A stretch of DNA of 64,000 bases from a virus, in the IMG/VR virus record IMGVR_UViG_3300027967_000093; one strand, 5' to 3'. Shown here piece after piece: positions 1,780 through 36,418 of this stretch (position 1 is the first letter of the stretch; every line of letters starts with the position of its first letter). A program made the translations under genes and the position numbers. The notes beneath the pieces are model-generated. The model did no database searches and had not been told where the DNA came from. It was given only the letters and a program-made list of their open reading frames with translations.

Positions 1780-2041
1780 CATGGAAGAGAAAGTTGATGA
1801 CAAGTGGTACGGTAAAAACTTTGACTGGTATGTCAAGTGGGCTGCAACTGTAATTATCTTGGTTTCGGTGACATTCCGTAATGCGGGTGTCGAGTTCCGA
1901 CATTTCGACCTGTCCTTCGGTTTACTCGGTACCTTGCTTTGGTTATGGGTATCGGTGATGTGGAAAGACCGTGCACTGATTATTTTGAATGCGGTAATGA
2001 CACTTTTATTAGGGTCAGCACTAATAAAGGAGTTTGTGTGA
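1772..2041 (+). CDS. small multi-pass membrane protein (DUF6552-like)
   Basis: DWYVKWAAT...WKDRALIILN; three hydrophobic helices; start may be ATG 1781. Confidence 0.6.
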   Translation: MSNMEEKVDDKWYGKNFDWYVKWAATVIILVSVTFRNAGVEFRHFDLSFGLLGTLLWLWVSVMWKDRALIILNAVMTLLLGSALIKEFV

Positions 2042-3636
2042 CATTGAGTCCTCTTGATATTCATGGGATTATTAACAATACCCCCGATACAGAATTAACG
2101 TTAACTATCAAAAAACCTAGTGGGAACTTCAAACAGTTAACCTGCTGGGTCAATGATGTTTTAGAAATAAGTCCGGAGACGACAACTATACCTTGCAAGG
2201 ATAAGTCGATAGTGACTTTTCTTAACTGTGTGTTACGTCTATCGGTAACTCTCCAGAATGCAGTAGGAGTCCCTACTTTCAAGATACCCATGGTTACCGA
2301 GGTTACTGACCTAGGTGATTCCATCGAGGTTGAACTGATACAATACCGTCTGTCTGGTTTTATGCCAGAAACCTTCACTGGTTCTCTTCAACATGCCATC
2401 TCGATATGTCACAAATCATTAACAACCGAACCTACTGATAATAACATCTTATCATTGATGTCACATATAGAGTCTAAGGTAATACCTGATATACGTATCA
2501 TGGTCGCATATTCAAATGCAACTGTTCCTGTAATCAAGGCTGCGGGAGAACGTGGAATACCCTTTGTATGTCTAGGTAAGGGTATCTACCAACTAGGTAC
2601 AGGAAGTTCTCAGAGACGTATTAAAGGCAGTATGTCCGACCGTGATTCTAGTATTGGTGTTGATATTGCAGGGGATAAGTTTGTTGCGTCAAGTACATTA
2701 CGGAACATGGGATTCCCTACACCCGAGCATTATATGGTGACTCGTCTAGAACATGCACTAGGGGTAGTAGAAGACTTGGGATACCCTGTGGTGGTCAAAC
2801 CTGTAGATGGTGACCGTGGGGAAGGTGTGACTATTAATGTGGACAATGATGCCATGTTACGTGGTGCAGTCCAGAAGGGTATGAATGCGTCTATCAGTAA
2901 AGTTCTGTTGATAGAAAAACCTGTCGAAGGTGTGTGTCATCGACTCTTTATCACCAATGGAAAAATGGTCTATGCGGTAAAACGTGACCCTATTTACGTG
3001 GTAGGTAATGGTGTCGATACTATATTATCCCTTAATGAGAAAGAAAAAACTCGTCAAGATAAACGTCCGGTCTGGAATCGCGAACCCTTTGCACACTTTG
3101 ACTATACTACCGAACTGCATCTACAACTCACGGGTATGGATGGTCAGACTGTACCTGCCGAGGGTGAAGTGGTTTATCTAAGAGCCATAGAGTCTACCCA
3201 AGATGGTGGTATAGATGAGGATATGACCAAGAAGATTCATCCTGACAATATTGATATGGCGATACGCGCAACCAAAGTTTTGGGTCTGGATATTGCGGGT
3301 GTGGATATCATCGGAAAAGATTTGTCGGTACCATGGCACAAATCGGATATGGTGATTACTGACATCAATCCATCTCCTACATTCTGTGCGGCTAGTATCT
3401 CTCGTAGTTACCTACCCGAGTTCATCGATACCTATTTTGAAGGTGACTGTTGTATACCTGTCATACAAGAAGATGAAGTACTGAAAAACGTGGAGGAAGG
3501 TATTCGTTATGCAGTTCTTTCCGGTGAAAAGGTTACATGGAGTGACGGTAAAGAGTGGTACCATAAAGGTACTCATCAAGAACAACTGAGAATGTTGTTA
3601 CTCGACCCAACGTTCGATGCGTTGTTTATTGTATAA
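2038..3636 (+). CDS. cyanophycin synthetase-like ATP-grasp ligase (N + ATP-grasp domains, no full Mur-ligase domain)
   Basis: GTG 2038 with AAGGAG RBS; AAGERGIP...YQLGTGSSQRRI, IAGDK, GYPVVVKPVDGDRGEGVT, HRLFI, GLDIAGVDII, DINPSP. Confidence 0.75.
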   Translation: MTLSPLDIHGIINNTPDTELTLTIKKPSGNFKQLTCWVNDVLEISPETTTIPCKDKSIVTFLNCVLRLSVTLQNAVGVPTFKIPMVTEVTDLGDSIEVELIQYRLSGFMPETFTGSLQHAISICHKSLTTEPTDNNILSLMSHIESKVIPDIRIMVAYSNATVPVIKAAGERGIPFVCLGKGIYQLGTGSSQRRIKGSMSDRDSSIGVDIAGDKFVASSTLRNMGFPTPEHYMVTRLEHALGVVEDLGYPVVVKPVDGDRGEGVTINVDNDAMLRGAVQKGMNASISKVLLIEKPVEGVCHRLFITNGKMVYAVKRDPIYVVGNGVDTILSLNEKEKTRQDKRPVWNREPFAHFDYTTELHLQLTGMDGQTVPAEGEVVYLRAIESTQDGGIDEDMTKKIHPDNIDMAIRATKVLGLDIAGVDIIGKDLSVPWHKSDMVITDINPSPTFCAASISRSYLPEFIDTYFEGDCCIPVIQEDEVLKNVEEGIRYAVLSGEKVTWSDGKEWYHKGTHQEQLRMLLLDPTFDALFIV

Positions 3637-3639
3637 ATA
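3632..3639 (+). promoter_or_regulatory. T4-type late promoter
   Basis: TATAAATA upstream of ORF 3673. Confidence 0.6.
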
Positions 3640-3672
3640 TGGGAAACTGCATTGTAATCACAGGTACCCGTA

Positions 3673-4278
3673 ATGGATGAGAAATTAATAGCAACTGAAA
3701 TACCCGAGAGTAGGGACAGAGAACGTTTTGTTCCGGAACACCCGATAGATGGAAAGATTGACATCCCTGGCGACTTCGGAACAGTTAAGGATTTTGCACA
3801 ATGGTGGTTCTATAATAATATGCCATTTGCACCCCCACTCGATACAGAGATTTATCGTTCGGACGATGCGACCTCGATGTGTATGTTTAGACATGGAAGG
3901 TATCAGGTAGAACTCTACATGATTTTTCCTACACCTAATTTACCTATACATGAACATCCTGGCGTAGAAGTTATCAAATATAGAATGCCATACTATCCAA
4001 GTCCTGAAGGTATGGAACCAATGATTACCAGTCATATATTGAAGGCGGGTGAGGCGCATGGTGCAGGAATCAACTTTAAGGAACGTGAAGGTCAGTTGAA
4101 TAAAGGGTTCCCTTTACTCGCGTTTGAAAGATGGGACGAAGATTTAGATATGACTACTGTTGCAACTCGATGGAAGGGTGAAACGGTAGGCCCAATGCAA
4201 GAAGATTTAATTAGAAGATTCTATCCGGATGCGTATGTCGTGGACGGATATGCTGACGTGACAAGGAAAATGAAATAA
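3673..4278 (+). CDS. hypothetical protein, possible cupin-like fold
   Basis: FRHGRYQVELY...PIHEHPGVE. Confidence 0.6.
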   Translation: MDEKLIATEIPESRDRERFVPEHPIDGKIDIPGDFGTVKDFAQWWFYNNMPFAPPLDTEIYRSDDATSMCMFRHGRYQVELYMIFPTPNLPIHEHPGVEVIKYRMPYYPSPEGMEPMITSHILKAGEAHGAGINFKEREGQLNKGFPLLAFERWDEDLDMTTVATRWKGETVGPMQEDLIRRFYPDAYVVDGYADVTRKMK

Positions 4279-4970
4279 TGTTTATATCTCACCAACATAA
4301 AATCGCATACTTTTCAGTACCAAGGGTAGGGTCTAACTCTGCCCAGTATGTGTTAGAAAACAGTCAACTCCCTACTCGAGATGATGATGTGATAACCAAC
4401 CTAGATGAAATAGAATCCTTGGAGATGAATGAGGATACTCTTTCAAGACGAGATAGTCTTGCGACCAGAACTCTCAATGAATATCACATGACGCCTACAC
4501 AGGCGATTGACCAAGGACTAATCACACTAGAAGAACTTCGTGAGTATACCAGTTTTGCATTTGTCCGAGACCCTCTGGAAAGATGGGTGTCTAGATTTAT
4601 GTTGGCAAAGTCATTCGGTTTGTGGGAAGGTGATAATATAGATACCATGACTCTTGCGATACGTCATGGATTGTTCAATGGTCGAACTGACCTTGCATTA
4701 GATTTCAAATGGAACTACCGTGATTATTTTTATCACAACGATGAACTCATACTAACTCCGTACAAACTAGAGTCTATGGATACGGTTCTATCTACCGTAG
4801 TGGGTAATGCGGGAGGTTTTGCGGAGACTGATGTACCTCAGATACAACTCGGTGACCCAACACCCGAGTATCTTAAACTACCAATAGCGACTTGGATGGC
4901 CGAAGATTGCATAGACCTTCTGCGTTCATACTATGCATCGGATATCGAGTTCTACGAGTCCATCGACTAA
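4278..4970 (+). CDS. sulfotransferase-like protein (Sulfotransfer_2 type)
   Basis: MFISHQHKIAYFSVPRVGSNS (5'-PSB-like), FAFVRDPLERWVS (3'-PB-like), YYASDIEFY. Confidence 0.6.
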   Translation: MFISHQHKIAYFSVPRVGSNSAQYVLENSQLPTRDDDVITNLDEIESLEMNEDTLSRRDSLATRTLNEYHMTPTQAIDQGLITLEELREYTSFAFVRDPLERWVSRFMLAKSFGLWEGDNIDTMTLAIRHGLFNGRTDLALDFKWNYRDYFYHNDELILTPYKLESMDTVLSTVVGNAGGFAETDVPQIQLGDPTPEYLKLPIATWMAEDCIDLLRSYYASDIEFYESID

Positions 4971-5007
4971 AACTCACATTTGGGTCACATTTTATCAATA
5001 AAAACAC

Positions 5008-5036
5008 TTGACTTCTTGTTATGATTATGAGATAAT
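5008..5036 (+). promoter_or_regulatory. early sigma70-type promoter (repeat family copy 1)
   Basis: TTGACT-N17-GATAAT; 29 nt identical to copy at 21797. Confidence 0.75.
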
Positions 5037-5086
5037 GACTGTACAAATTGAGTGATGAATTCCTAAACAAAAGAGAGAAATATATA

Positions 5087-5761
5087 ATGTTTGAACATGT
5101 TCCGGTCGAATTGACCGAGATGGAAGCAGTGACCACCGATAGTGGCCGCAAATACAAAACCCCCGAAGGTGTCAACCTTCCCTCTATCACTACAGTCCTT
5201 TCGATTCTGTCACGTGACAGTATTGCCAAGTGGCGTAAACGTGTAGGTGAGGAAGAGGCGAATCGTGTCTCTTATCGTGCATCTACTCGTGGTACCTCGG
5301 TTCACGAAATCTGTGAGAAGTATGTTAACAATGACCCCAACTTCAAAGAGGGTTACACACCTGACATTATTGGTTCTTTCCTTGATTTGAAACCAATACT
5401 TGATGAACGTTTGACTAAGGTCTTCGCACAAGAAGCCCCACTATACTCCAATCATTTGGGTGTTGCGGGTCGTGTGGATTGCGTGGGTATCTTTGATGGT
5501 AAACCGTCAATCATCGATTACAAAACTTCGATGAAACCTAAACGTCTTGACTGGATTAAGAACTACTTCATGCAAGAAGCTGCGTATGCAATCATGTGGG
5601 AAGAACGTACTGGTCAACCTATCACTCAGTTGGTTACCATAATCTCGGTTGATAACAATGAACCTCAAGTGTTTATCGAACATCGAGACAACTGGGTACG
5701 ACCCCTAATCGAAACTATTGCACAATATAATGAGGAAAATTCTACTTCCCTTTTTGTATAA
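5087..5761 (+). CDS. PD-(D/E)xK exonuclease (Cas4-like, conserved in T4-like phages)
   Basis: PSITTVL, RGTSVHEICE, AGRVDCV, IIDYKTS, YFMQEAAYA; ATG 5087 more likely than TTG 5048. Confidence 0.8.
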   Translation: MFEHVPVELTEMEAVTTDSGRKYKTPEGVNLPSITTVLSILSRDSIAKWRKRVGEEEANRVSYRASTRGTSVHEICEKYVNNDPNFKEGYTPDIIGSFLDLKPILDERLTKVFAQEAPLYSNHLGVAGRVDCVGIFDGKPSIIDYKTSMKPKRLDWIKNYFMQEAAYAIMWEERTGQPITQLVTIISVDNNEPQVFIEHRDNWVRPLIETIAQYNEENSTSLFV

Positions 5762-5764
5762 ATA
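5757..5764 (+). promoter_or_regulatory. T4-type late promoter
   Basis: TATAAATA before ORF 5804. Confidence 0.7.
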
Positions 5765-5803: not shown

Positions 5804-7105
5804 ATGATAGGGTTCAAAACTTTTTTATCGGAGGCATCTTTGACCTTCGGAGAAATCACTCGTGAGGATAGACCTGACCGAATAGAATTATTTCTCCGAA
5901 AGTATAAAGGTAATGAACCCTTTGAGTTGGTCGGTGGTGACCAAGTAGTCTTTAAGTACAATGCAGAGATTGAGAAAGCTGTTAAATCAGGAAACTCTAA
6001 ACTCGCACAGTCAATTGGACTCGAAACCCTAGATGGAACTAAACTCGCATTCGGTAAGTTATCTAAGACTGCCGAGTTCGGGGGTGGTCGTGGTTCGGGT
6101 GGTGGTGCAGCCAACACTCGTGCAACTGAATCTGCACAATGTGTTTATCTACAAGCAATCTGGGATAACCGGACAACTAAATTCTCTGCGGATGATATAC
6201 GTAACGCATATCCCAAAACGCATACAGATGCGTCTCTAGATGAAGTTCTTCTGGCTGATGAAGGATGGATCTCCTCTTCCATTACTGCCGCAAAAATTCT
6301 ACATAAAGCTCTAGGTAAAAAACAATACAGTTTCCATCGTGGATCTGGTTGGGTTGAGATATTAGAGAAGAAGTTTAAAGAGTTGAATCGCATCGAGAAA
6401 GCATTCGGTAATGTCAACAAATGGTCTCCTGCGGACATCTACATGGTCGCAAAGGGTGCAGAGAACATGTATGATATAGAGGGTGCAAAGTCTCTGGAAT
6501 ACCTGAACAACGAATTGATGAAGGCATACACTGCACGTGATATCATTGGTGTGTCGTTGAAGAAGGTAATAGGTAACAAGGTCAGACTGTCTCAAGTTAA
6601 CTATAAGAAACCATTCAAAGGTGCGAAGTTCACCAAGTCATCTTATGGTAAGAAAGATTTCTTCAAGTCCAAAGATGGTTACCTGTTTGGTGCCGGTGGT
6701 ATTGAGATGCAGTTCCGAACCTTCCCTACCTTCCAGTGCGAGATTATCGGTAAAGCTGCTAAACATGGTAAGGTATCTCATGGTGGTATTGATGCGGCTC
6801 TATATGCAACAACTCGTGATAAGACCGAGAATCGTAAGGATCTTGAGTCGTCCATCAAGAAAGATAGGGATGCGTTCCTAGACAAATTCTATGGATTCTA
6901 TGATGGTGCAGTAGATAGTCCGGTAGACAAGGAAACTTTTAAAAAGAATCTGGAAGGTAAGACAACAGAATGGTTAGTCTCTAAGTACTATGTGACTTCT
7001 ATTTTCATAATGATACAAGGTCGCGAACAACAATTCATGGATTATTTATTCCGTGTAGCAAAGTCACAATCACCGCTATCTGCGGTACACTTAAAGGTAA
7101 GTTAA
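5804..7105 (+). CDS. putative internal head protein with restriction-endonuclease-like (PD-(D/E)xK) motifs
   Basis: N-term MIGFKTFLSEA; ESAQC...NKWSPADIYM...IIGVSLKK. Confidence 0.55.
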   Translation: MIGFKTFLSEASLTFGEITREDRPDRIELFLRKYKGNEPFELVGGDQVVFKYNAEIEKAVKSGNSKLAQSIGLETLDGTKLAFGKLSKTAEFGGGRGSGGGAANTRATESAQCVYLQAIWDNRTTKFSADDIRNAYPKTHTDASLDEVLLADEGWISSSITAAKILHKALGKKQYSFHRGSGWVEILEKKFKELNRIEKAFGNVNKWSPADIYMVAKGAENMYDIEGAKSLEYLNNELMKAYTARDIIGVSLKKVIGNKVRLSQVNYKKPFKGAKFTKSSYGKKDFFKSKDGYLFGAGGIEMQFRTFPTFQCEIIGKAAKHGKVSHGGIDAALYATTRDKTENRKDLESSIKKDRDAFLDKFYGFYDGAVDSPVDKETFKKNLEGKTTEWLVSKYYVTSIFIMIQGREQQFMDYLFRVAKSQSPLSAVHLKVS

Positions 7106-7106
7106 A

Positions 7107-8441
7107 ATGGCACAAATTAAAGGCGCGCAGGGAAAGTTTCATGAAACTACTGCACTAGTAAATAGACACGGCACGTTGGTAGATAGTGGCAATCCTTTAC
7201 CTATTGTTGGCACTACAGAAAACCCTTGGGGCAAACAAGTTCTTCTAGTCGATGACGATACTGTTCAACACACTTCTAAGAATAGACGTAAAGTTTCTAC
7301 ATATGAAGTGACAGACTTCAACACATTTACATACGGAAAAGACGTAGATATTTGGGACGAACTCGTTGTTGGTACAGGTTCTTCTACCCATGATCCGTAT
7401 CTCGGTATGGTTGAATTAGAGGTTGGTTCGGATTCTGGAGATTCGATCATTCGACAAACCGCACGTATCCAGAGATATTTACCAGGCCGTGCTAATGAAG
7501 TTTCTATGTCTGTAATTTTTGGATCTCAGACATCGGGTATTCGTAAAAGATTCGGTGTATTCGATGATGACAAAGGTGCATACTTTGAAGATGATGGTGA
7601 TGACCTTTATTGTGTATTGAGAAGAGATACTGCCGGTGGAGAAGACGAAGAACGTTATTCTCGTGCAAATTGGTCTGTTGATAAGTTGGATGGTACTGGG
7701 CCGAGTGGTATCACATTAGATCTTTCTAAAATTCAATTAATGGTAATTGAGTACGAGTGGTATGGTGCAGGACAGGTTGAGTGGAAGTTTGTTATTGACA
7801 ACAATGCAATTTCTATTCATAAGATAGATCACGCTAATACTCATGACCACACTTGGGCATCACGTGGTGCACTTCCAGTTCGCATAGAATTGACAAATGT
7901 TGATGGTATTGCGGGAACTCACTCCGTGTATCAGGGTTCTCATTCATTCCTTACTGAAGGAACAACTACTCTTCTCGGAAGACAAAAAAGTATTTCTTCG
8001 GCAATTACAGGAAAATCCCTCACATCTGCTAATACTTTTTATCCTATTGTTGCGATACGACTCAAGGCAGACGCACTAAACTCTGTCGTACTACCCGATG
8101 AATATTCTGGTGCTACATTAGATAACTCAAGTATGTTTATCAGAGCAATCGAAGATGCTACTGTTACTGGCGGCACTTGGGTTTCATACGACTCTGATTC
8201 TCCTATTGAATATAATATCACCGCTACTGGTTATACCAACGGTAATATTTTAGGAACAACATATGTTTCTAGTGGTAACATGGGACAGAAAGTTGAATTT
8301 CCTGAAAGGTCGATTACTCAACTTGCCAGAAAGACCACAACAACACTAGGTGATACTACAACCACGTTCCTGATTGCTGTTGCTTCAACGGGTTCAAACA
8401 AGACGGGTTGGGCAGATCTGGGTTGGATTGAGGTAAGATAA
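7107..8441 (+). CDS. putative virion structural protein (beta-rich)
   Basis: RYLPGR, RFGVFDDDKGAYFE, IEYEWYGAGQV, LPVRIE; T/S/G-rich. Confidence 0.55.
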   Translation: MAQIKGAQGKFHETTALVNRHGTLVDSGNPLPIVGTTENPWGKQVLLVDDDTVQHTSKNRRKVSTYEVTDFNTFTYGKDVDIWDELVVGTGSSTHDPYLGMVELEVGSDSGDSIIRQTARIQRYLPGRANEVSMSVIFGSQTSGIRKRFGVFDDDKGAYFEDDGDDLYCVLRRDTAGGEDEERYSRANWSVDKLDGTGPSGITLDLSKIQLMVIEYEWYGAGQVEWKFVIDNNAISIHKIDHANTHDHTWASRGALPVRIELTNVDGIAGTHSVYQGSHSFLTEGTTTLLGRQKSISSAITGKSLTSANTFYPIVAIRLKADALNSVVLPDEYSGATLDNSSMFIRAIEDATVTGGTWVSYDSDSPIEYNITATGYTNGNILGTTYVSSGNMGQKVEFPERSITQLARKTTTTLGDTTTTFLIAVASTGSNKTGWADLGWIEVR

Positions 8442-9661
8442 TGAAATTTAAAGAATTTATCACAGAACAAAAGAACACCCACATGACGCATATCGAAGAT
8501 AAAGTCATTTACGGGGGTGTGAATGGTACACGGCAAGCAATCCTTGCACTGCGAGAATTGCGTGATATGTTGTCCGGTAAACACAGCGGAAAAGTCTCGG
8601 TAAAATGGGATGGTGCGCCTGCAATCTTCTGTGGACAAGACCCACGGGACGGTGAGTTCTTTGTTGCGAAGAAAGGTATATTTAATAAGAACCCAAAGGT
8701 ATATAAAACTAATGCAGAAATTGAAGAAGACACTTCGGGAGACCTTGCGGACAAACTTAAAGACGCTCTTAAATATCTACCAAGTCTTGGTATTAAAGGT
8801 GTTATTCAGGGCGACTTTCTTTTTGGTCGAGGTGATGTACAGACTAAGACAATCGATGGACAAAAATATGTAACGTTCCATCCTAATACAATTGTGTATG
8901 CAGTACCGGAAGAACAGGCGCAATCAGTTAAGGCTGCAAAAATCGGTATAGTGTGGCACACTACATATACTGGTAGTTCTTTTGAGACGATGAAGGCATC
9001 CTATGGTGTTGATGTATCGAAACTTAAAAAGTCTACTACTGTATGGTCACAAGATGCAATGCTTCGTGATTTATCTAACGCAACAATGACAACTAAAGAA
9101 ACGGAGAAAGTGAATGAATATCTTTCGCAAGCTGGTAAACTTTTTAACCAAATTAGTGGGACGACCCTCAGAACCCTCGAAGGAAACCCCACCCTCGCCC
9201 AAACCATCGAAACCTACGGAAACACCAAAGTCCGCAAAGGCGAAGTCATCGGCAACTCGAAAACCCACGTCAAAGGTCTCATCAAATACATCAACGACAA
9301 GTACCAAAAAGAAATCGACAAGCGCAAAACCGAAAAGGGTAAGCAAGCCCAAGAAACCAAACGCGAAGAAATAATGTCGTTCTTTTCACCTGCAAATCGA
9401 GCATCTCTAGAAAAGATGTTCGAATTGCAAAAAATGATAGTTCTTGCAAAGTTAACTCTTATAAATAAACTTAACAGTTTAAAAGATATTGACACTTTTG
9501 TTAAAACCAAAACTGGTTATAAAGTAACTGGTGAAGAAGGTTATGTGGCAATAGATAAACTTGGTGGTGATGCGGTGAAACTTGTTGACCGTATGGAATT
9601 CTCATACAACAACTTTTCACCCGATATATTAAAAGGCTGGGACACACCTAGTCGTACTTAA
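8441..9661 (+). CDS. DUF6267-like protein with ATP-dependent ligase motifs; putative internal head protein
   Basis: MKFKEFITEQ; HMTHIED; KWDG (motif I), IQGDF (III), EGYV (IV), VKLV (V). Confidence 0.7.
   Translation: MKFKEFITEQKNTHMTHIEDKVIYGGVNGTRQAILALRELRDMLSGKHSGKVSVKWDGAPAIFCGQDPRDGEFFVAKKGIFNKNPKVYKTNAEIEEDTSGDLADKLKDALKYLPSLGIKGVIQGDFLFGRGDVQTKTIDGQKYVTFHPNTIVYAVPEEQAQSVKAAKIGIVWHTTYTGSSFETMKASYGVDVSKLKKSTTVWSQDAMLRDLSNATMTTKETEKVNEYLSQAGKLFNQISGTTLRTLEGNPTLAQTIETYGNTKVRKGEVIGNSKTHVKGLIKYINDKYQKEIDKRKTEKGKQAQETKREEIMSFFSPANRASLEKMFELQKMIVLAKLTLINKLNSLKDIDTFVKTKTGYKVTGEEGYVAIDKLGGDAVKLVDRMEFSYNNFSPDILKGWDTPSRT
9114..9374 (+). CDS. nested (+1 frame) small protein: amphipathic N-terminus plus P/S/T/K-rich basic tail
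   Basis: GGAG 9103-9106, ATG 9114; only 2 of 71 host-gene codons (9161-9373) end in T versus about 40% in a flanking sample. Confidence 0.7.
   Translation: MNIFRKLVNFLTKLVGRPSEPSKETPPSPKPSKPTETPKSAKAKSSATRKPTSKVSSNTSTTSTKKKSTSAKPKRVSKPKKPNAKK
9460..9467 (+). promoter_or_regulatory. internal T4-type late promoter
   Basis: TATAAATA about 220 nt upstream of ORF 9686. Confidence 0.5.
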
Positions 9662-9685
9662 TGGGATAAACCAGAGGAAATAGAA

Positions 9686-10081
9686 GTGGCAAAGAAACCG
9701 CTTAGATTCAAAGAATTCGACTCCGTTGATACCAACGAAGAAGTCGCGCAAGAGGCATTGACCGTACAACAACGTATGGCGAAGTCTCGTCAGATGAAGA
9801 AACTTGCACCCAAAATCGCAATCGGCCGCAAACGCGCTGCCCGTAAGATGGCGAATATGGATACCATCAAAAAACGTGCACGTAAAGCCGCACGTAATAT
9901 TATCCTAAAGAAACTAACTAAAGATATCCCCAAAGACGAGTTGTCAATGTCTCGCAGACAGGACATTGAGAAAAGACTAGATAAGATGAAACCTAAGATT
10001 GACAAACTCGCACAGAAAATGTTACCGAAGGTTCGTAAGAAAGAACTTGAACGTAAAAAAGGGGGCCCAAGTGCCGATTAA
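9686..10081 (+). CDS. conserved basic protein, putative internal head/DNA-binding protein
   Basis: GTG with GAGG RBS; LRFKEF...QEALTVQQRMAKSRQMKK; very K/R-rich. Confidence 0.7.
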   Translation: MAKKPLRFKEFDSVDTNEEVAQEALTVQQRMAKSRQMKKLAPKIAIGRKRAARKMANMDTIKKRARKAARNIILKKLTKDIPKDELSMSRRQDIEKRLDKMKPKIDKLAQKMLPKVRKKELERKKGGPSAD

Positions 10082-11891
10082 GAATTTTTCCCAATACCTC
10101 ATCGAAGAGGAAAGGGAGGTTTATTTTACCTTTGGTAGAATGAACCCACCTACTATTGGGCATGGGAAAGTGATGGATACTCTTGCAGCGAAGTCTGGTA
10201 AGAGTGATTATAAAGTATATCTGTCACACTCACAGAATCCCAAGAAAGACCCACTGTCCTATGTGGAGAAAGTGAAACACACTCGTAAAATGTTTCCAAA
10301 ACATGCACGTCAAGTAATGTTAGATAAGGATGTCAAGTCCGTATTTGATATTGCAGTAAAACTATATGACCAAGGTTATACTAAGATTAATATGGTTGTT
10401 GGTGCAGACCGTATACGTGAGTTCGATGTATTGTTGAATAAGTACAACGGTACAAAGGCACGTCATGGTTTCTACAATTTCAAAAAGATTAATGTCATAT
10501 CTGCGGGTGAACGTGACCCCGATGCAACTGGTGTCGAGGGTATGTCCGCGTCTAAACAACGTGCGAATGCAGAGAAAAATGATTTTGTTACCTTTGCACA
10601 GGGTGTACCAAAAGGTATGTCCAACAAAGATACACGTGCACTATTCAATGATGTACGTAAAGGTATGGGACTCAAGGAAGAAAGAGAATTTAAAAACCAC
10701 ATCGAACTAGAAACTGTTTCTGAAACAAGAGAACAGTACGTGTCAGGTGAACTGTACAATGTAGGTGATTTGGTAGTAATCAAAGAAAGTGACGAGGTTG
10801 GTACTGTATTAGTCCTTGGTGCTAACTATGTAATTGTAGAAACGGCCAACGGTAAGTTACGTAAATGGTTAGATGCTGTAGACCTACTAGAGAAACAAGA
10901 CTCAGATATCAAAGATCGTGAAGGTACACAACCTGCACGTTATCACTCTGGACTGAAGAAGTCCACCAAAGTTGCACGTGATGCACACTTCAAGAAACAC
11001 GGTAAGAAAGCAGACGATGATGCATCTGCATACAAACCTGCTCCTGGCGATGCAACTGCACAGACCAAACCTTCTAAGTACACCAAACAGTTCAAAGATA
11101 TGTACGAAGAAGTCTCTCAGAAACAACTCAATGACCTTGAGAAGTTTGGTGACAGACTCCTTGCAAAGTATGATATCGATATAGAATTCACACGTCACTT
11201 CGCTGACCGTATGAACGACTCTCGTAACAAACCTGAGATTAAGGTCACTGAACTACAGAAGTTGTTCAAAAAGATTGCAAAAGAAAAAGGTCGGAACATC
11301 AAAAAACATGGTGATTCAGAGGCAGTCCTGAAGGATATGCAGTCTGACCTTAACTTACCTGTAGTAATCAACTACAAGAACGGTGAGTTTGAAGTTATTA
11401 ACAAAACAATAATGCGCAAGAAAGACTTTAAGACTACTAGTCCTGAAGTTAAGTACGAGTCTGTCGAACAGATTGACGAGTTACTTGGAAGATATATCGA
11501 TAATCTCGAAGGCCCATTGGCGGGTCGTTTCTGGGATAAGATTATTAACGCAGATGTGTACAAGACAGTTATCGCAACCTTCAGAAAAGAACTTCAAAAA
11601 AGTTCTGCGGGTCAAAGAAACAAATTAGGATTTATGTCAGATATCGCACGTAGGTATGGCGCGAATGGTCGTAGTGCGGCAGAGATATTCCACAAGTTAA
11701 TCAAGAAAGGTGTTATTCCCGAGAAGGAAGCGTTCTATCCAAACTTCAGTATGAAGGAAGAACTTGATCCGGTTAAGACTGCACGTGATGCAATCGAACG
11801 TGAGAAAGAGTCTGATAAGAAGAAACACGATTCTATTCTAGACCGTGCAAGACTTGCACGTGCAAAACAAAAGAATAGGAAAACTAAATGA
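10071..11891 (+). CDS. cytidylyltransferase-like (HIGH superfamily) nucleotidyltransferase, multidomain polyprotein
   Basis: GTG 10071 (MPIKNFSQYLIEEE); FTFGRMNPPTIGH, VVGADR, SAGERDPD, MSASKQR; followed by several extra modules. Confidence 0.8.
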   Translation: MPIKNFSQYLIEEEREVYFTFGRMNPPTIGHGKVMDTLAAKSGKSDYKVYLSHSQNPKKDPLSYVEKVKHTRKMFPKHARQVMLDKDVKSVFDIAVKLYDQGYTKINMVVGADRIREFDVLLNKYNGTKARHGFYNFKKINVISAGERDPDATGVEGMSASKQRANAEKNDFVTFAQGVPKGMSNKDTRALFNDVRKGMGLKEEREFKNHIELETVSETREQYVSGELYNVGDLVVIKESDEVGTVLVLGANYVIVETANGKLRKWLDAVDLLEKQDSDIKDREGTQPARYHSGLKKSTKVARDAHFKKHGKKADDDASAYKPAPGDATAQTKPSKYTKQFKDMYEEVSQKQLNDLEKFGDRLLAKYDIDIEFTRHFADRMNDSRNKPEIKVTELQKLFKKIAKEKGRNIKKHGDSEAVLKDMQSDLNLPVVINYKNGEFEVINKTIMRKKDFKTTSPEVKYESVEQIDELLGRYIDNLEGPLAGRFWDKIINADVYKTVIATFRKELQKSSAGQRNKLGFMSDIARRYGANGRSAAEIFHKLIKKGVIPEKEAFYPNFSMKEELDPVKTARDAIEREKESDKKKHDSILDRARLARAKQKNRKTK

Positions 11892-12154
11892 TTAATTTCA
11901 AAAAATACCTTGCCGAAGCACGTTATTCAATGTATGATGTAATAGATGAAGAGGGTGAAGGACTTGCTGGTAAAGCGAAGAAGTCTGGTATCTCGGTAGA
12001 TACATTGAGAAAAGTTTATAACCGTGGTGTTGCGGCATGGAAGACGGGACACCGTCCAGGCACTACTCCACAGCAATGGGGATATGCGAGAGTAAACGCA
12101 TTCATCGTTAAAAAGAAAAAAGGCAATTTAAACCACGATAAGGATCTTGCATAA
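11888..12154 (+). CDS. DUF5824-like protein, putative internal head protein
   Basis: MINFKKYLAEA; LRKVYNRGVAAWKTGHRPGTTPQQWGYARVN. Confidence 0.7.
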   Translation: MINFKKYLAEARYSMYDVIDEEGEGLAGKAKKSGISVDTLRKVYNRGVAAWKTGHRPGTTPQQWGYARVNAFIVKKKKGNLNHDKDLA

Positions 12155-13297
12155 ATGAAGTCGTTTCAAGAATTACGTGAGAAGTCAGTCTCACAAGCCC
12201 AACAAAAGATGATGGGTATGGCACTCGCATACAAACGTGGTGAGATGGACGATGTGTCACCCGAAGTCAAGAAGATGGCGGACTCTATGTCTACCAAAGA
12301 CCTCGAAGACTTCGCAAAGACCAAACACAAAGGCCTGCCTGATCGAAAAGAATCAGTCGAACTTGACGAAGCAGTTAAAACGAGAGTTTATAAAAGTGGA
12401 AAGTATTGGCTTGTTGATGTATCAAGTTCTAAGATTGACTACACTGATTGGGGCCCTACTGGCAGAGGTTTTGCTAATGAAAAGGATGCTCAAGAATTTG
12501 CCAAACACATGCAAAAATCTGTAAAAGAATCTGTTTCAGAAGGTGCGATGTCTGACTTCCATCTGATGGTTAAAGAGAAGGTACCTGCTGCGAAGATTGC
12601 TAAGGAACTTGGACTTGACCTCAAGACCGTGAAGAAACTGATGAAAGATATGAAGGAATCAGTAGACCTCGAAGAAGGTAAACTACCTCCGCATCTAGCG
12701 AAGTTCTTTGATAAGAAAGGTGAATTAAAACCTGAAGTTCTTGACCGTCTAAAGAAAAGTAAAAAGGGTCATGAATTTCTGATGGGTAAAGATGTTGCAC
12801 CTAAAGGTTATGGTGTAAAAGAAGAAGTTGAACTTGACGAAGCAATGCGCGGTGGTAATGCTAAAACTTTCAAAACATTAGAAGATTGGTTAATGGCGGT
12901 TCTTGATATTAAAGGCACAACTGTATCTAAAATGGGTAATACATTAAGAGTTAACGGTTTAGGTCGTACACAATCTGCTACGTTTGAATTGAAGAAAGGT
13001 CGTGGTTCTTTACTAGAAGCACGTAAAGACTCATCTGCCGATTTGTATTTCAAGACTTACTCTGCCGCAGTACAACACGCAAAATCACAAGCAGAGAAGA
13101 AAGGTTTCGAAGTTGTCGAAGACGATTGGTTCAATCAAGTAACTACGGGTAAGGGTAAACCAGGCCGTGGTAAGACTACACGTCATACACTGAAGTTGAC
13201 TAAGAACGGTAAACCTGTACGTCAAGGTCTGTCGATTCAAGTCTACAACCGTGACACTGATACGAACCCATACGAACTTAACTTCTACGTGAGTTAA
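12155..13297 (+). CDS. modular polyprotein (DUF3008-like N-terminal module), putative internal head protein
   Basis: MKSFQELREK; SQAQQKMMGMAL...DLEDFAKTKHKGLP; repeated linkers KESVELDEA/KESVSEG/KESVDLEEG/KEEVELDEA. Confidence 0.7.
   Translation: MKSFQELREKSVSQAQQKMMGMALAYKRGEMDDVSPEVKKMADSMSTKDLEDFAKTKHKGLPDRKESVELDEAVKTRVYKSGKYWLVDVSSSKIDYTDWGPTGRGFANEKDAQEFAKHMQKSVKESVSEGAMSDFHLMVKEKVPAAKIAKELGLDLKTVKKLMKDMKESVDLEEGKLPPHLAKFFDKKGELKPEVLDRLKKSKKGHEFLMGKDVAPKGYGVKEEVELDEAMRGGNAKTFKTLEDWLMAVLDIKGTTVSKMGNTLRVNGLGRTQSATFELKKGRGSLLEARKDSSADLYFKTYSAAVQHAKSQAEKKGFEVVEDDWFNQVTTGKGKPGRGKTTRHTLKLTKNGKPVRQGLSIQVYNRDTDTNPYELNFYVS
12359..12844 (+). repeat. 15-nt direct repeat GAACTTGACGAAGCA encoding the ELDEA linker (12359-12373 and 12830-12844)
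   Basis: identical 15-mers flank internal modules. Confidence 0.7.
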
Positions 13298-13298
13298 T

Positions 13299-13649
13299 AT
13301 GAAAACTTTTAATCACTACAATGAGATAGACGAACATTGCGAATGTAATGATTTGTACGAAGACTTAGAATTAACAGAGTCCGAGTATCAAGGAAAGAAA
13401 GTCACGTTGAACAATCCCATTCGTACATCCGAGAACCCCAACAAGAAGTTCAAGGTGTACGTTAAGAATGAATCTGGTAAGGTTGTTGTGGTTAGGTTTG
13501 GTGACCCTAATATGGATATTAAGAGAGACGACCCCAATAGACGTAAGTCATTCCGAGCAAGGCACAACTGTGCGAATCCCGGCCCCAAATGGAAAGCAAG
13601 ATACTGGTCTTGTTACCAATGGCGCGCAGGTTCTAAAGTCGATAACTAA
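13299..13649 (+). CDS. conserved viral protein (DUF6321/DUF5754-like)
   Basis: KKFKVYVKN...VRFGDPNM...RRKSFRARHNC...ARYWSC. Confidence 0.7.
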   Translation: MKTFNHYNEIDEHCECNDLYEDLELTESEYQGKKVTLNNPIRTSENPNKKFKVYVKNESGKVVVVRFGDPNMDIKRDDPNRRKSFRARHNCANPGPKWKARYWSCYQWRAGSKVDN

Positions 13650-16970: not shown

Positions 16971-17551
16971 GTTTAGAACAGGAATATAAGACACTATTTC
17001 CAAATTTCAAACGAGGAATAGAAGGTCATTGTCTACTCACTGATGTTACCATTGAGTACGCAAAAGATATTCAAAGTATAGTCCAACCAAAGAACATGTT
17101 GGAAATTGGGTTTAATGCAGGTCACAGTGCATTTATGTGGTTGTCTCTATTTCCCGAGTTGAATTTCCATTCGGTCGATATATGTGAACACCCATATACC
17201 CTAGACCATATGAAAAAGTTAAAAGAAGTTTTTGGTGATAGATTTACGTATGGTAAAGGTGACTCCAAGAAACTAAACCGAGACTTTGTTAGTCAGTTTG
17301 ACTTGGTGTTTATTGACGGAGACCATACTAGAGAGGGTGTCACCAGTGACTATGAGTTGTGTCGTAGTGCAGGAACACCTTGGATTCTCATAGATGATTA
17401 TAATAATTTACGAGTACCAAGGAATTTATGTAACCACATAAGTTCTTCGGAAAACCATCCCTACACAGAAATAGGGAAATTCAAATACGATGACGCTACT
17501 CTAAAGACCGTAGCAGTACTGTTTAAAAGGAACGACAATGAAACCGTTTAA
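16967..17551 (+). CDS. class I SAM-dependent methyltransferase (Methyltransf_24-like)
   Basis: LEIGFNAGHSA, SVDI, GDS, FDLVFIDGDH, ILIDD. Confidence 0.8.
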   Translation: MSLEQEYKTLFPNFKRGIEGHCLLTDVTIEYAKDIQSIVQPKNMLEIGFNAGHSAFMWLSLFPELNFHSVDICEHPYTLDHMKKLKEVFGDRFTYGKGDSKKLNRDFVSQFDLVFIDGDHTREGVTSDYELCRSAGTPWILIDDYNNLRVPRNLCNHISSSENHPYTEIGKFKYDDATLKTVAVLFKRNDNETV

Positions 17552-17711
17552 GAAGTTTGTTGATGAAATGACAGGAACCTCTGCGGTTGCAGGTGCAGGC
17601 GATGACTCTGAGACAGTCGTGATGCGCAAGAAATACGACAAGAAGAACAAACGTAAAGACCAAATTGATGTACTCAAAAGAATAATGGGTAATCCCTCCA
17701 AAAAGTCTTGA
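17538..17711 (+). CDS. 57-aa protein not in ORF track (MKPFKKFVDEMTGTSAVAGAGDD...), putative internal head protein
   Basis: AAGG RBS; capsid-targeting-like N-terminus; basic C-terminus. Confidence 0.65.
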   Translation: MKPFKKFVDEMTGTSAVAGAGDDSETVVMRKKYDKKNKRKDQIDVLKRIMGNPSKKS

Positions 17712-17762: not shown

Positions 17763-18134
17763 ATGGACGTTTATCGCCATAGGGGATTACTTGTCTTTGT
17801 AATTCACGATGAAGAAGACATCCCCGAAGTTATTGAAACACAAGACTCAGTTGGACTGGCTGGTCTCGAAAAAAATAAAATTTTATATGTGTGTATGGAG
17901 GGGACGGATGATAAATACCTTCACCCCGAAAGGTTCTTGATTAAGAACCACGATGCGTCTCTGGTAAACCACTTCATGTGGGAAGGTCTGTTTACCCAAG
18001 ACCAACAAGATGAACGCATGTGGGAGATGATTAACCAGTTTATAGATACGGGTAAACAGTTTGTTATTGAGAACTACAAGTTTACAAAAGATGAACCATT
18101 TTACGATTACAGCGGTGGACGAGAAGACCTATAA
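17763..18134 (+). CDS. hypothetical protein
   Basis: AAGGA RBS; coupled to nrdA. Confidence 0.65.
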   Translation: MDVYRHRGLLVFVIHDEEDIPEVIETQDSVGLAGLEKNKILYVCMEGTDDKYLHPERFLIKNHDASLVNHFMWEGLFTQDQQDERMWEMINQFIDTGKQFVIENYKFTKDEPFYDYSGGREDL

Positions 18135-36415: not shown

Positions 36416-36418
36416 ATA
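36411..36418 (+). promoter_or_regulatory. T4-type late promoter
   Basis: TATAAATA. Confidence 0.7.

Follow-up and report, generated by a model that had tools for sequence, protein, structure and literature searches.

The window, the whole 64,000-nt stretch of DNA that was analysed, is a portion of the genome of a T4-like marine myovirus. A tightly packed block of genes is opened by the gene at 5804 (open reading frames 5804-7105, 7107-8441 and 8441-9661), and the stop codon of the structural gene at 7107 overlaps the ATG of a ligase-like gene at 8441. The features discussed below are as follows.

5757 to 5764, plus strand: T4-type late-promoter motif TATAAATA, 40 nt upstream of the 5804 gene
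5804 to 7105, plus strand: 433-aa protein, function unassigned (phrog_1462), with capsid-targeting-like leader MIGFKTFLSE/A
7107 to 8441, plus strand: virion structural protein, head and packaging (phrog_1645, E 2.3e-110)
8441 to 9661, plus strand: DUF6267 ligase-like protein, 406 aa (PF19782, E 1.1e-106)
8441 to 8467, plus strand: its leader MKFKEFITE, outside the folded domain
8603 to 8614, plus strand: motif I, KWDG, residues 55-58; K55 is the predicted AMP-accepting lysine
8804 to 8818, plus strand: motif III, IQGDF, residues 122-126
9092 to 9475, plus strand: all-helical insert of ~130 residues (218-345), after the motif IIIa region and before motif IV
9460 to 9467, plus strand: second TATAAATA motif, within the ligase-like gene and 226 nt 5' of the basic-protein gene
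9536 to 9547, plus strand: motif IV, EGYV, residues 366-369
9575 to 9586, plus strand: motif V, VKLV, residues 379-382
9686 to 10081, plus strand: highly basic protein, 131 aa (phrog_23027), between the ligase-like and adenylyltransferase genes
10071 to 11891, plus strand: multidomain adenylyltransferase, 606 aa, GTG start (9999-11891 in the ORF list)
10071 to 10106, plus strand: its N-terminal leader MPIKNFSQYLIE
10110 to 10679, plus strand: its HIGH-signature core, residues 14-203
10152 to 10163, plus strand: its HIGH motif TIGH, T28-H31
10539 to 10562, plus strand: its second signature GMSASKQR, residues 157-164 (pattern G-M-S-A-S-K-x-R)
11888 to 12154, plus strand: 88-aa protein, second half of DUF5824, leader MINFKKYLAE/A
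36411 to 36418, plus strand: TATAAATA late-promoter motif, 33 nt 5' of the kinase gene
36451 to 37323, plus strand: P-loop kinase, 290 aa, Zeta-toxin/AAA_33 type, leader MQSFNSFLKE/E
36580 to 36600, plus strand: its P-loop, GGAGSGK

Just upstream of the block, positions 1939-5761 encode an ATP-grasp enzyme, a sulfotransferase and a PD-(D/E)XK nuclease. Over the whole window the late-promoter motif was observed 14 times against 3.6 expected, a count reached by none of 100 shuffled windows, and further copies lie directly 5' of the baseplate genes at 49766, 58119, 61539 and 62537.

The initial annotation had described four ordered nucleotidyltransferase motifs in the 8441 protein, and all of them are found where it placed them. 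When 98 homologues (37-64% identity) were aligned, columns H17, K55, D57, G58, G65, K78, D125, N149, Y153, G169, H173, E366, G367, K380, F387 and N391 proved invariant, indicating that the motifs are not chance strings. Motif V retains one of the two lysines usual in ligases (K-L-V), with a near-invariant R384 close by. The Pfam domain begins at residue 12, and residues 1-8 of the model have pLDDT values below 50. The helical insert is largely absent from the S-CREM2 homologue gp87 (295 aa), where the profile match is confined to positions 14-130 and 331-400. Neither Pfam nor PDB sequence and profile searches gave a sequence-level match between DUF6267 and known ligase families, and hhalign profile comparison with a T4 Rnl2 alignment returned nothing. 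Since the comparison with the Rnl2 family was empty, the DUF6267 protein, with its helical insert, looks like a separate clade.

The AF2 model of the 8441 protein (pLDDT 94.4, pTM 0.91) has a predicted nucleotidyltransferase fold. Its best VIA-align match was the Naegleria RNA ligase Rnl5 (Z 8.3, 184 aligned residues, rmsd 3.8 A), followed among RNA ligases by REL1 (7.8), T4 Rnl1 (7.5), T4 Rnl2 (7.3) and Trl1 (7.3), whereas DNA ligases scored 5.8-6.5 (DNA ligase I, 6.5); a Z of ~8 lies in the middling range of the tool's own scale. By entry title, ~45 of the best 50 matches were ligases, ATP-dependent, aligning over 170-207 residues and covering almost the whole model (residues 8-393). Structure comparison had been suggested as a check on the ligase assignment; VIA-align placed RNA ligases on top, and Foldseek gave no match below E 0.1. 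The motif IV Glu and the motif V Lys are 14 residues apart, and the Naegleria mutant names E312/K326 suggest equal spacing there. No OB domain follows motif V in the model, and the protein stops 26 residues beyond it. On the predicted structure, we conclude that the 8441 protein, filed as DUF6267, belongs to the lysine-nucleotidyltransferase (polynucleotide ligase) superfamily, of which it is a highly divergent member, as the initial annotation had supposed for the ligase assignment. Because RNA ligases rank above DNA ligases among the structural matches, there is a hint that RNA may be its substrate.

A HIGH-type nucleotidyltransferase had also been proposed to follow after one basic gene. 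Its core is confirmed, and from the sequence its start is likely GTG 10071 rather than 9999; this GTG lies five bases past an AGGGGG Shine-Dalgarno sequence and overlaps the stop of the basic gene. Across 53 homologues, residues T28, G30, H31, S159, K162 and R164 do not vary. We take GMSASKxR to be the ISSTxxR-type second signature of the PPAT/NadD/NMNAT group and not the KMSKS of aminoacyl-tRNA synthetases. The protein scores 21.4 bits against PF01467 (cut-off 21) and matches phrog_3041/395 'cytidyltransferase' at E 1e-69. Its AF2 model has a pLDDT of 76.6 overall and above 90 in the core, for which Foldseek returned NadD, PPAT and NMNAT with probability 1.0, and VIA gave Z scores of 13.7 for PPAT (152/159 residues, 2.8 A), 12.9 for NadD and 12.6 for NMNAT; the NadD equivalog model reached 13 bits against a cut-off of 167. 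Beyond the core lie a small beta-barrel (~residues 234-272), the first half of DUF5824 and helical modules. The model thus identifies an adenylyltransferase of PPAT/NadD/NMNAT fold with extra modules. The suggestion that it is an NMN adenylyltransferase stands as to fold only, since the three structural scores are effectively tied in these models and single out none as its identity.

The distant kinase, announced with its GGAGSGK motif and the same type of leader, is present at 36451. It scores 30.8 bits against Pfam Zeta_toxin (cut-off 22.3), and among proteins of solved structure the nearest to it in sequence are adenylate kinases and zeta toxin (E ~0.02-0.04), not polynucleotide kinase.

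Co-occurrence of the genes across phages had been named beforehand as a test by which the proposed module could be refuted, and the genes do occur together. The adenylyltransferase follows DUF6267 in 72 of 80 IMG/VR loci, the other 8 having less than ~1.5 kb of sequence downstream of DUF6267. Of 134 loci overall, 105 contain both genes, and ~22 have a kinase no more than 6 kb away. The enzymes are also fused, in the order DUF6267 to adenylyltransferase (P0124, P0265 and S-PM2d138 of phage S-PM2), adenylyltransferase to DUF6267 (P0217, P0168, P0422, P0466) or kinase to DUF6267 (P0121, P0395 from a cluster of 344 sequences, and ORF L032:4951-7200). Adenylyltransferase and kinase share one open frame in L040, L044, L057 and L062, the L040 and L044 kinases being 56-57% identical to the 36451 kinase. 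These arrangements bear out the idea that the kinase belongs with both enzymes. DUF6267 proteins of 712-2030 aa make up at least 277 clusters. At 51 of 80 related loci the basic protein separates the two enzymes; the basic module is also internal to polyproteins of 1314-1334 aa that open with DUF6267. DUF5824 is, in relatives, part of one polypeptide with DUF6267 and the adenylyltransferase, as in P0124, where DUF6267, CTP_transf_like and DUF5824 form a single 854-aa protein; in P0408 and P0410 a single leader precedes DUF6267, the basic module, DUF5824 and a 13299-type module. In P0158, a module resembling the 5804 protein is fused ahead of DUF6267, a likeness judged by eye, as was the GVSLK-type motif common to the 5804 protein and the N-terminal 480 residues of P0158, and one that BLAST did not confirm. 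DUF6267 and the adenylyltransferase are therefore a conserved functional pair, neighbours or fused in either order, which a small P-loop kinase joins in many relatives.

Of 1386 candidate starts on the two strands, 7 match the leader pattern M-x(0-4)-[FYW]-x-x-[FYLIW]-[LIVM]-x-E, and six of these are real gene starts (5804, 8441, 10071, 11888, 17538 and 36451). Among 47 long plus-strand genes, 5 carry it where ~0.1 would be expected, a ~50-fold enrichment. The leaders agree with MKTYQEFIAE of T4 IPII/IPIII at positions 4, 7, 8 and 10, the targeting and processing determinants of the T4 leader (PMC9026906), and retain the layout of the T4 propeptide for capsid targeting: an aromatic residue, a second aromatic, Leu/Ile, and Glu at the cleavage position. 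A gp21-type protease was found in 4/4 related genomes; the 64,000-nt window itself holds no prohead protease gene. Adenylyltransferase homologues were detected by mass spectrometry of cyanophage virions in S-SM1 (25 peptide counts; PMC3037559 Table S8), S-SCSM1 and S-CBWM1 (PMC9602691) and S-CREM2 (gp154; PMC10665884), the N-terminus of gp154 reading MKNFSSFLTE. DUF6267 is absent from the published virion protein lists of S-SM1, S-PM2 and Syn9 and from the S-CREM2 virion ORFs in table excerpts (PMC10665884). Its leader is lacking in the three cyanophages checked, S-PM2, S-CAM9 and S-CREM2, suggesting that the enzyme pair also works if made inside the cell. Given the T4-like leaders, the upstream late-promoter motifs and the adenylyltransferase homologues in cyanophage virions, capsid delivery is plausible in the present lineage; the disordered leader outside the domain and the overlap of the 8441 gene with a virion structural gene were also counted in its support.

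Our preferred reading, held tentatively and at somewhat short of even chances, is that a capsid-carried kit of ligase-like enzyme, adenylyltransferase and kinase repairs nuclease-cut nucleic acid before phage gene expression. The three enzymes and several neighbours would be made late from T4-type late promoters; the leader-bearing proteins would be carried into the prohead core, trimmed after Glu by a gp21-type prohead protease and ejected with the DNA into the next host, steps that the T4-type leaders and late promoters make most likely. There Lys55 of the ligase-like enzyme would accept AMP, which the enzyme would pass to a 5'-phosphate end provided by the kinase before sealing that end to a 3'-OH, so that nucleic acid cut by host nucleases is mended ahead of any phage gene expression. 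Kinase-ligase RNA repair needs an end-healing phosphoesterase for 2',3'-cyclic phosphate ends, and no such partner was seen in the fusion proteins. The adenylyltransferase, whose role is the least clear, would transfer AMP to a phosphomonoester and may serve to produce or renew the adenylyl donor of the ligase, or to pre-adenylylate ends; no HIGH-type transferase is known to act on polynucleotides.

Alternatively, DUF6267 could be the DNA ligase that is 'missing' from cyanomyovirus-type T4-like phages, replacing T4 gp30 in the cell at Okazaki fragments and nicks, with capsid loading in the present lineage a secondary add-on or nonexistent. Cyanomyoviruses have no recognisable gp30 homologue, distant homologues being left possible (PMC2984593), and PF01068 and PF09414 are missing from the two complete close relatives C48C1 and G001 and from S-CREM2, all three of which carry DUF6267. 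The family is widespread (452 phage records, mostly cyanophages), its leaderless members adjoin uvsX, gp41, mazG and nrd genes in S-PM2 and S-CAM9, and the K-x-D-G form of motif I is typical of DNA ligases. However, the structural scores are lower for DNA ligases than for RNA ligases, an OB domain is missing, G002 has DUF6267 alongside a canonical DNA ligase and an RNA ligase, and the obligatory adenylyltransferase and kinase partners go unexplained. We consider this explanation unlikely.

Rather unlikely, too, is a role in cofactor or nucleotide metabolism, in which the adenylyltransferase would make NAD+ or dephospho-CoA, the kinase would make its phosphorylated substrate and DUF6267 would use the product, for instance as an NAD+-dependent ligase, or adenylylate a small molecule, early delivery countering NAD+-depleting defences. 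NadR combines an NMNAT with a ribosylnicotinamide kinase, an arrangement that the adenylyltransferase-kinase fusions resemble; the 10071 fold matches NadD, NMNAT, NadM and PPAT, and the kinase is closest to nucleotide kinases. Virion-proteome authors name the protein NMNAT and propose NAD+ tuning on entry (PMC9602691, PMC10665884), and phages are known to counter defence systems by rebuilding NAD+ (Osterman et al. 2024, cited in PMC12801897). Against this stand the low NadD equivalog score, the equal or better structural match to PPAT together with the PPAT-like T-x-G-H form of the motif, the lack of Nampt or any other NAD+ pathway gene beside the pair, and the absence of NAD+-dependent ligase adenylation domains from the top structural matches of the 8441 model.

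P-loop kinases act on DNA bases in phage thymidine hypermodification, and the ATP-grasp, sulfotransferase and nuclease genes at 1939-5761 would also suit a DNA hypermodification pathway, in which the kinase activates a base substituent for nucleotidyl or adenylyl transfer and virion presence reflects stickiness to DNA. The S-CREM2 authors caution that non-structural proteins present in abundance may be purified along with the virions (PMC10665884). We regard this as very unlikely, as the present analysis gave no sign of modified DNA, the lysine-adenylylating ligase fold has no known base-modification role, and the specific leaders, single-leader polyproteins and late promoters speak for deliberate loading into the capsid rather than carry-over. 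That DUF6267 has lost catalysis and is a structural or internal head protein keeping a ligase-like shape is hardly credible: the overlap with a virion structural gene, the lack of detectable sequence likeness to active ligases and the lost motif V lysine would fit, but exactly the residues that carry out ligase chemistry are invariant (>2500 representative clusters) and persist even in the stripped-down S-CREM2 form.

In the structural model, DUF6267 appears as a previously unrecognised RNA-ligase-shaped enzyme of T4-like marine phages. The leader-tagged enzymes of the present phage probably enter the host together with the DNA, as a repair or cofactor kit that is ready for use.

The protein encoded at 8441-9661 is a full-length member of the Pfam family DUF6267 (E 1e-106), and we found no paper in the literature searched that mentions this family. 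The genes considered together with it are as follows.

8441-9661, DUF6267 protein, 406 aa
9686-10081, basic protein, 131 aa, between the two enzyme genes
10071-11891, adenylyltransferase with a HIGH signature, 606 aa
36451-37323, P-loop kinase, 290 aa

A HMMER search of 1.8 billion representative proteins placed DUF6267 members in 2584 clusters at 50% identity. Relatives of the 8441 protein were found in 452 phage records, nearly all of them Synechococcus or Prochlorococcus myoviruses, the remainder being Pelagibacter phage HTVC008M, the Melnitz methylophages, Stenotrophomonas phage DLP6 and Phage C48C1 (Kyanoviridae). The last is the closest relative among phage records (72% identity) and shares the gene order around the DUF6267-adenylyltransferase block with the window, which is itself a portion of a T4-like myovirus, with T4-type baseplate genes (tube cap, wedge subunits, hub/lysozyme) in its 3' third. 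When prokaryotes were scanned with one genome for each species, 54 DUF6267 matches appeared, almost all on metagenome-bin contigs, several of 90-190 kb, which we read as phage DNA binned with cells. The same scan revealed no cellular operon context for the family, so that no argument can be drawn from neighbouring genes in bacterial repair operons. In NCBIfam, neither DUF6267 nor the basic protein nor the 5804 protein had a match, and the ESM Atlas returned only unnamed viral clusters.

Other genes of the window were noted in passing. The region 1939-5761, just upstream of the block, has genes for an ATP-grasp protein (1939-3636), a sulfotransferase-like protein (4278-4970) and a PD-(D/E)XK nuclease (5048-5761), which could point to nucleic-acid or small-molecule modification. 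The large subunit of ribonucleotide reductase (18134-20101) carries a glutaredoxin domain at its C-terminus (residues 571-628).

The initial annotation had described ordered ligase motifs in the 8441 protein, a HIGH-type nucleotidyltransferase encoded after one basic gene and a distant P-loop kinase with the same type of leader, and all of these features were confirmed in the sequence. In an alignment of 98 full-length DUF6267 members (37-64% identity), sixteen columns are invariant, including K55-x-D57-G58 (motif I, KWDG), D125 (motif III, IQGDF), E366-G367 (motif IV, EGYV) and K380 (motif V, VKLV); N149 and Y153 are likewise invariant. Since the motif residues are invariant in all 98 members, the motifs represent the selected core of the family and not chance strings. 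They follow one another in ligase order, except that motif V reads K-L-V-D-R and is missing the second lysine, for which the nearly invariant R384 might be a stand-in. Motif I is also kept in S-PM2d138 and in the minimal gp87 of phage S-CREM2. This 295-aa protein (L089:2391-3278) has lost most of an internal helical insert but retains K-I-D-G, Q-G-D-F, E-G-F-V and K-L-V-D-R; it has no leader and is encoded at a distance from that phage's adenylyltransferase, gp154. In one complete 146.6-kb viral genome, the DUF6267 match (G001:C1:38583-39803, locus L088) contains a single in-frame TAG, which may reflect an error in sequencing, recoding or the loss of function of a pseudogene.

Placed next to each other, the DUF6267 and T4 Rnl2 family consensus sequences look alike:

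Consensus strings of three motifs in DUF6267 and in the T4 Rnl2 family
Motif III: DUF6267, QGDxMF; T4 Rnl2 family, FGEFAG
Motif IV: DUF6267, PEGFVA; T4 Rnl2 family, AEGYVLK
Motif V: DUF6267, AVKLVDRLEFS; T4 Rnl2 family, AIKCKNSKFS

Comparison of DUF6267 by hhalign with T4 Rnl2, and with a 38-sequence Rnl2 alignment, gave no signal (probability 0.1), and Pfam gave no match of the 8441 protein to PF09414 (Rnl2-type) or PF01068. Searches of solved-structure sequences, whether with the single sequence or with the 98-sequence profile, returned nothing beyond low-complexity matches of the Lys/Glu-rich insert to a ribosomal protein.

An AlphaFold2 model of the 8441 protein, built from the 98-sequence alignment, was highly confident (pLDDT 94.4, pTM 0.91), with disorder limited to the first eight residues. 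The initial annotation had proposed structure prediction and Foldseek as a check on the ligase assignment. Foldseek alone was not significant, as no PDB entry fell below E 0.1 and DNA ligases appeared only at probability 0.2-0.5 amid carbonic-anhydrase noise. When the model was aligned exhaustively with 48,161 chains, RNA ligases came out at the top over 170-200 residues, namely those of Naegleria (Z 8.1), fungal Trl1 (7.9), trypanosome REL1 (7.7), T4 Rnl2 (7.4) and T4 Rnl1 (6.8). DNA ligases scored 5.8-6.4. When VIA-align was run on Foldseek's top 1000 chains, Naegleria Rnl scored Z 8.3 over 184 residues at 3.8 A, and about 45 of the top 50 rows were ligases as counted from entry titles. The ligase alignments cover residues 8-393, nearly the whole model, with 170-207 residues aligned, so that much of an all-helical insert of about 130 residues (218-345) is evidently skipped. 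This insert is the sole extra module; the model ends 26 residues past K380 in one helix, with no C-terminal OB-fold after motif V.

The likeness to ATP-dependent RNA ligases (Naegleria/Deinococcus Rnl5, T4 Rnl1 and Rnl2, REL1, Trl1) thus comprises the nucleotidyltransferase fold (170-207 residues, Z 7.2-8.3), a matching order of motifs I, III, IIIa, IV and V, the lysine of K-x-D-G, the acidic residue of motif III, the E-G of motif IV and one lysine of motif V. In contrast to those enzymes, DUF6267 has no profile-level sequence similarity to them, its second motif V lysine is replaced, its helical insert lies within the domain and takes the place of the substrate-binding domain that RNA ligases have appended at the N- or C-terminus, it possesses an additional invariant N-terminal H-x-x-H-x-E-D segment, and its constant partner is a HIGH-type adenylyltransferase. 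The T4 DNA ligase gp30 belongs to the same superfamily and has the same K-x-D-G form of motif I, but DUF6267 lacks the OB domain and a PF01068 match, and it resembles DNA ligases less closely in structure than it does RNA ligases. With motif residues invariant and a ligase-type nucleotidyltransferase fold in the model at moderate Z (8.3 at best), the earlier reading of a ligase-motif protein holds. We conclude from the model that DUF6267 forms a clade of its own, and a very divergent one, within the lysine-nucleotidyltransferase superfamily, its predicted shape nearer to RNA ligases, at moderate Z scores and with one motif V lysine. In the structural ranking, RNA appears somewhat more likely than DNA as the substrate.

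The helical insert (window 9092-9475) gave structural matches to YqeY (1ng6, 8xjg and 8xje, Z 6.2-6.9), which we take to be related to the tRNA-binding tail of GatB. For helical bundles these Z scores are below the level that the tool treats as meaningful, so that the modelled likeness is suggestive beside a tRNA-repair idea and only a lead.

The second enzyme of the block was reassigned in its start codon. The ORF list gave TTG at 9999, which we rejected in favor of GTG at 10071, since the latter is preceded by the Shine-Dalgarno sequence AGGGGG, overlaps the stop of the basic gene, begins with the conserved leader and has equivalent starts in homologues. Among 53 homologues, conservation is complete or almost complete along G-R-x-N-P-P-T-x-G-H and G-M-S-A-S-K-x-R, with T28, G30, H31, S159, K162 and R164 strictly invariant. 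We considered whether 'MSASK' is the KMSKS motif of a synthetase and rejected this; the string belongs to the second, ISSTxxR-type signature of the PPAT/NadD/NMNAT group. The match to Pfam CTP_transf_like (PF01467) is just above threshold (21.4 bits, cut-off 21), and the protein also hits two 'cytidyltransferase' families of PHROG (E about 1e-69). In the model of the 606-residue protein the core (residues 14-203) is confident, and it aligns with PPAT at Z 13.7 (152 of 159 residues, 2.8 A), tied with NadD (12.9), archaeal NMNAT (12.6) and NadM (12.6), at Foldseek probability 1.0. The HIGH-type nucleotidyltransferase recognized in the initial annotation is therefore borne out by both signatures and fold. 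Since PPAT, NadD and NMNAT lie within 1 Z unit, the substrate cannot be called; an outright NMNAT name was rejected, PPAT being an equal structural match, and the curated NadD equivalog model NF000842 fails on the protein (13.3 bits, cut-off 167). The safe statement, resting on the modeled core, is that the 10071 protein would be an adenylyltransferase placing AMP on a phosphomonoester. Homologues are labelled NMNAT or cytidylyltransferase in published virion proteome papers (PMC9602691, PMC10665884), and the NMNAT name of the cyanophage literature is not established.

The protein shares with PPAT (CoaD), NadD/NMNAT, NadM and NadR the Rossmann-type fold and the (T/H)xGH and ISSTxxR-type signatures. 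Unlike them, it carries a capsid-targeting-like leader, and C-terminal to its core lies a small beta-barrel together with helical modules and part of DUF5824. This last domain is split: its first half is in the 10071 protein, its second in the 88-aa product of the gene at 11888.

The initial annotation had named co-occurrence across phages as bearing on a joint module, and the two genes are indeed found together. Among 80 IMG/VR loci sampled for DUF6267 only, irrespective of neighbours, 72 have the adenylyltransferase downstream, and in the eight others less than about 1.5 kb of sequence remains downstream of DUF6267. Both were present in 105 of 134 loci. The two are also joined in single polypeptides, in either order: DUF6267 precedes the adenylyltransferase in the homologues P0124 and P0265, in locus L137 and in the corrected S-PM2 gene S-PM2d138 (591 aa), while the reverse arrangement occurs in P0217, P0168 and the 761-813-aa forms P0422 and P0466. 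At least 277 clusters contain DUF6267 proteins longer than 711 residues. In P0408 and P0410 (1314-1334 aa), a single leader precedes DUF6267, a basic-protein-like module, DUF5824 and a DUF5754-like module of the 13299 type; what is a block of separate genes here (8441-13649) is thus one polyprotein elsewhere.

A P-loop kinase is linked to both enzymes. It is found N-terminal to DUF6267 in P0121, in P0395 (a cluster of 344 sequences) and in a 749-aa ORF (L032:4951-7200), and it shares one open frame with the adenylyltransferase at L040, L044, L057 and L062, the first two having kinases 56-57% identical to that of the window. These fusions to either enzyme in relatives bear out the proposal of the initial annotation that the distant kinase belongs with the two enzymes. 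Where an architecture recurs, fusions were checked at the locus level (L032, L040, L044, L057, L062, L137 and the S-PM2 record). The window kinase has the Walker A sequence GGAGSGK and matches Pfam Zeta_toxin (PF06414; 30.8 bits, cut-off 22.3), and the kinase fused to DUF6267 in P0121 matches AAA_33 (E 9e-10) as well as Zeta_toxin. In PDB sequence searching with kinases of this kind, adenylate kinases and zeta toxin were the best matches (E 0.02-0.04), and the window's own kinase gave none.

Several fused forms call for comment on annotation. S-PM2 has two records (AJ630128 and LN828717; loci L144 and L146). The original one splits the fused DUF6267-adenylyltransferase gene into p138 and p139 'Cytitidyltransferase', probably owing to a frameshifted sequence; the corrected one calls the 591-aa fusion hypothetical and attaches 'possible cytitidyltransferase' to an unrelated 92-codon ORF, S-PM2d141. 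By eye, residues ~430-840 of P0265 form a module with a GRGE...D...EIK pattern, PD-(D/E)xK nuclease-like, and residues 1-480 of P0158 resemble the 5804 protein; BLAST against the window proteins confirmed neither likeness.

Products of the block and the kinase begin with a stretch resembling the capsid-targeting sequence of T4 internal proteins. The T4 ipII and ipIII products both start MKTYQEFIAE, then A; the first ten IPIII residues suffice for capsid targeting, with positions 4 and 7 serving targeting and positions 8 and 10 serving cleavage, after Glu, by the prohead protease gp21 (PMC9026906).

Leaders in the window and their register
5804, MIGFKTFLSE, register exact
11888, MINFKKYLAE, register exact
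36451 (kinase), MQSFNSFLKE, register exact
17538 (57-aa ORF, 17538-17711), MKPFKKFVDE, register exact
8441 (DUF6267), MKFKEFITE, offset -1, one residue short
10071 (adenylyltransferase), MPIKNFSQYLIE, offset +2, two residues long

The pattern is ~50 times commoner at gene starts than within proteins and lies outside folded domains. It is kept in 43 of the 53 adenylyltransferase homologues and in a large part, not all, of the DUF6267 homologues. A looser version, MKSFQELRE, starts a 380-aa DUF3008-containing protein (12155-13297), and this protein and the 57-aa ORF at 17538 may, from their leaders, be further capsid cargo.

The T4 late-promoter motif TATAAATA has 14 copies in the window against 3.6 expected, including copies 40 nt upstream of the 5804 gene, 33 nt upstream of the kinase gene and upstream of baseplate genes. 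A virion structural gene ends in a stop that overlaps the start codon of DUF6267. No gp21-type prohead protease gene was detected within the 64-kb window; the protease (PF03420) was present in all four related genomes searched. The set therefore resembles T4 IPI-III and Alt in a leader of ~10 residues with aromatics at 4 and 7, Leu/Ile/Val at 8 and Glu at 10, and resembles the T4 internal head protein system in its T4-type late promoters, a gp21-type protease (here, in relatives) and a small, very basic protein in the block. It differs in its predicted cargo, which consists of ATP-using enzymes, and of multi-module polyproteins in relatives, where T4 has small basic proteins, a restriction inhibitor and an ADP-ribosyltransferase.

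For the adenylyltransferase, virion association is on record. As T4-GC190, a cyanophage core gene, it is recorded at 25 peptide counts in the virions of S-SM1 (PMC3037559 Table S8), homologues were found in S-SCSM1 and S-CBWM1 virions (PMC9602691), and the homologue gp154, which starts MKNFSSFLTE, in S-CREM2 virions (PMC10665884). Entry of this protein into the host with the DNA has already been suggested by those authors. DUF6267 is absent from the S-SM1/S-PM2/Syn9 virion protein table (PMC3037559 Table S8) and is not among the S-CREM2 virion ORFs in the available part of PMC10665884; the supplement of the S-SCSM1 paper contains no virion protein list. The DUF6267 proteins of S-PM2, S-CAM9 and S-CREM2 start at a conserved K-N-x-H-x-x-H-x-E-D segment and have no leader, and this contrast fits the leader being a loading signal. 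Leaderless variants also indicate that the enzyme pair functions when made intracellularly. Virion delivery of the ligase-like enzyme is thus a prediction, drawn from its leader, for the lineage of the window, and not a general property.

As to function, three readings were weighed. In the one that we tentatively rank highest, by a small margin, the kinase would make a 5'-phosphate and the ligase-like enzyme would seal the broken nucleic acid. This ranking reflects the fact that every fused partner but the adenylyltransferase would be used in a known role. A P-loop kinase linked, sometimes fused, to a ligase-fold enzyme is also what is seen in T4 Pnkp plus Rnl1 acting against PrrC, in Trl1 (ligase-kinase-CPD) and in Pnkp/Hen1. 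The set departs from such systems in that no 2',3'-phosphoesterase is among the modules identified, the kinase shows no greater detectable similarity to polynucleotide kinase than to nucleotide kinases, and the third partner is a PPAT/NMNAT-fold adenylyltransferase, a HIGH-type enzyme without a known place in healing and sealing; we know of no repair system that uses one. Moreover, the T4 repair enzymes are made after infection and are not packaged.

Alternatively, DUF6267 remains a candidate for the missing DNA ligase of cyanomyovirus-type phages, which have no gp30 homologue (PMC2984593): C48C1, S-CREM2 and the related genome G001 lack PF01068 and PF09414 and all encode DUF6267, but another related genome, G002, has all three together. 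Cofactor chemistry on NAD+ or CoA also remains a candidate, as the kinase-adenylyltransferase fusions recall NadR.

A bolder scheme we consider rather unlikely as a whole. DUF6267 would be a new polynucleotide-ligase clade, the long-suspected and so far unrecognised ligase of cyanomyovirus-type T4-like phages, and its obligate partner, the PPAT/NMNAT-fold adenylyltransferase, would make or recycle its adenylyl donor. These two enzymes and the kinase would, in some lineages, enter the capsid either each with its own leader or joined in a single polyprotein, and after injection they would mend nucleic acids damaged by the host ahead of any phage gene expression.

Capsid-targeting leaders, ligase folds and virion-associated 'NMNAT-like' proteins were each already known singly. 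New here is that a very common phage DUF is given, from a predicted structure, the fold and active site of a ligase-type enzyme, that it stands in fixed association with, and is fused to, an adenylyltransferase and a kinase, and that one lineage tags the entire set with T4-type leaders. DUF6267 is among the commonest unexplained genes of marine T4-like phages; its predicted fold and active site open a concrete and cheap biochemical test and bear on the remark in the cyanophage literature that these phages have no recognisable DNA ligase. To our knowledge, no ligase system described so far is tied in this way to a PPAT/NMNAT-like adenylyltransferase, and that adenylyltransferase has repeatedly been found in virion proteomes and never explained. 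Natural leader-bearing and leaderless variants provide a ready comparison for the capsid-loading idea. If the leaders work as in T4, this lineage would inject a set of ATP-using enzymes, and phage-delivered counter-defence cargo would be wider than inhibitors and ADP-ribosyltransferases.
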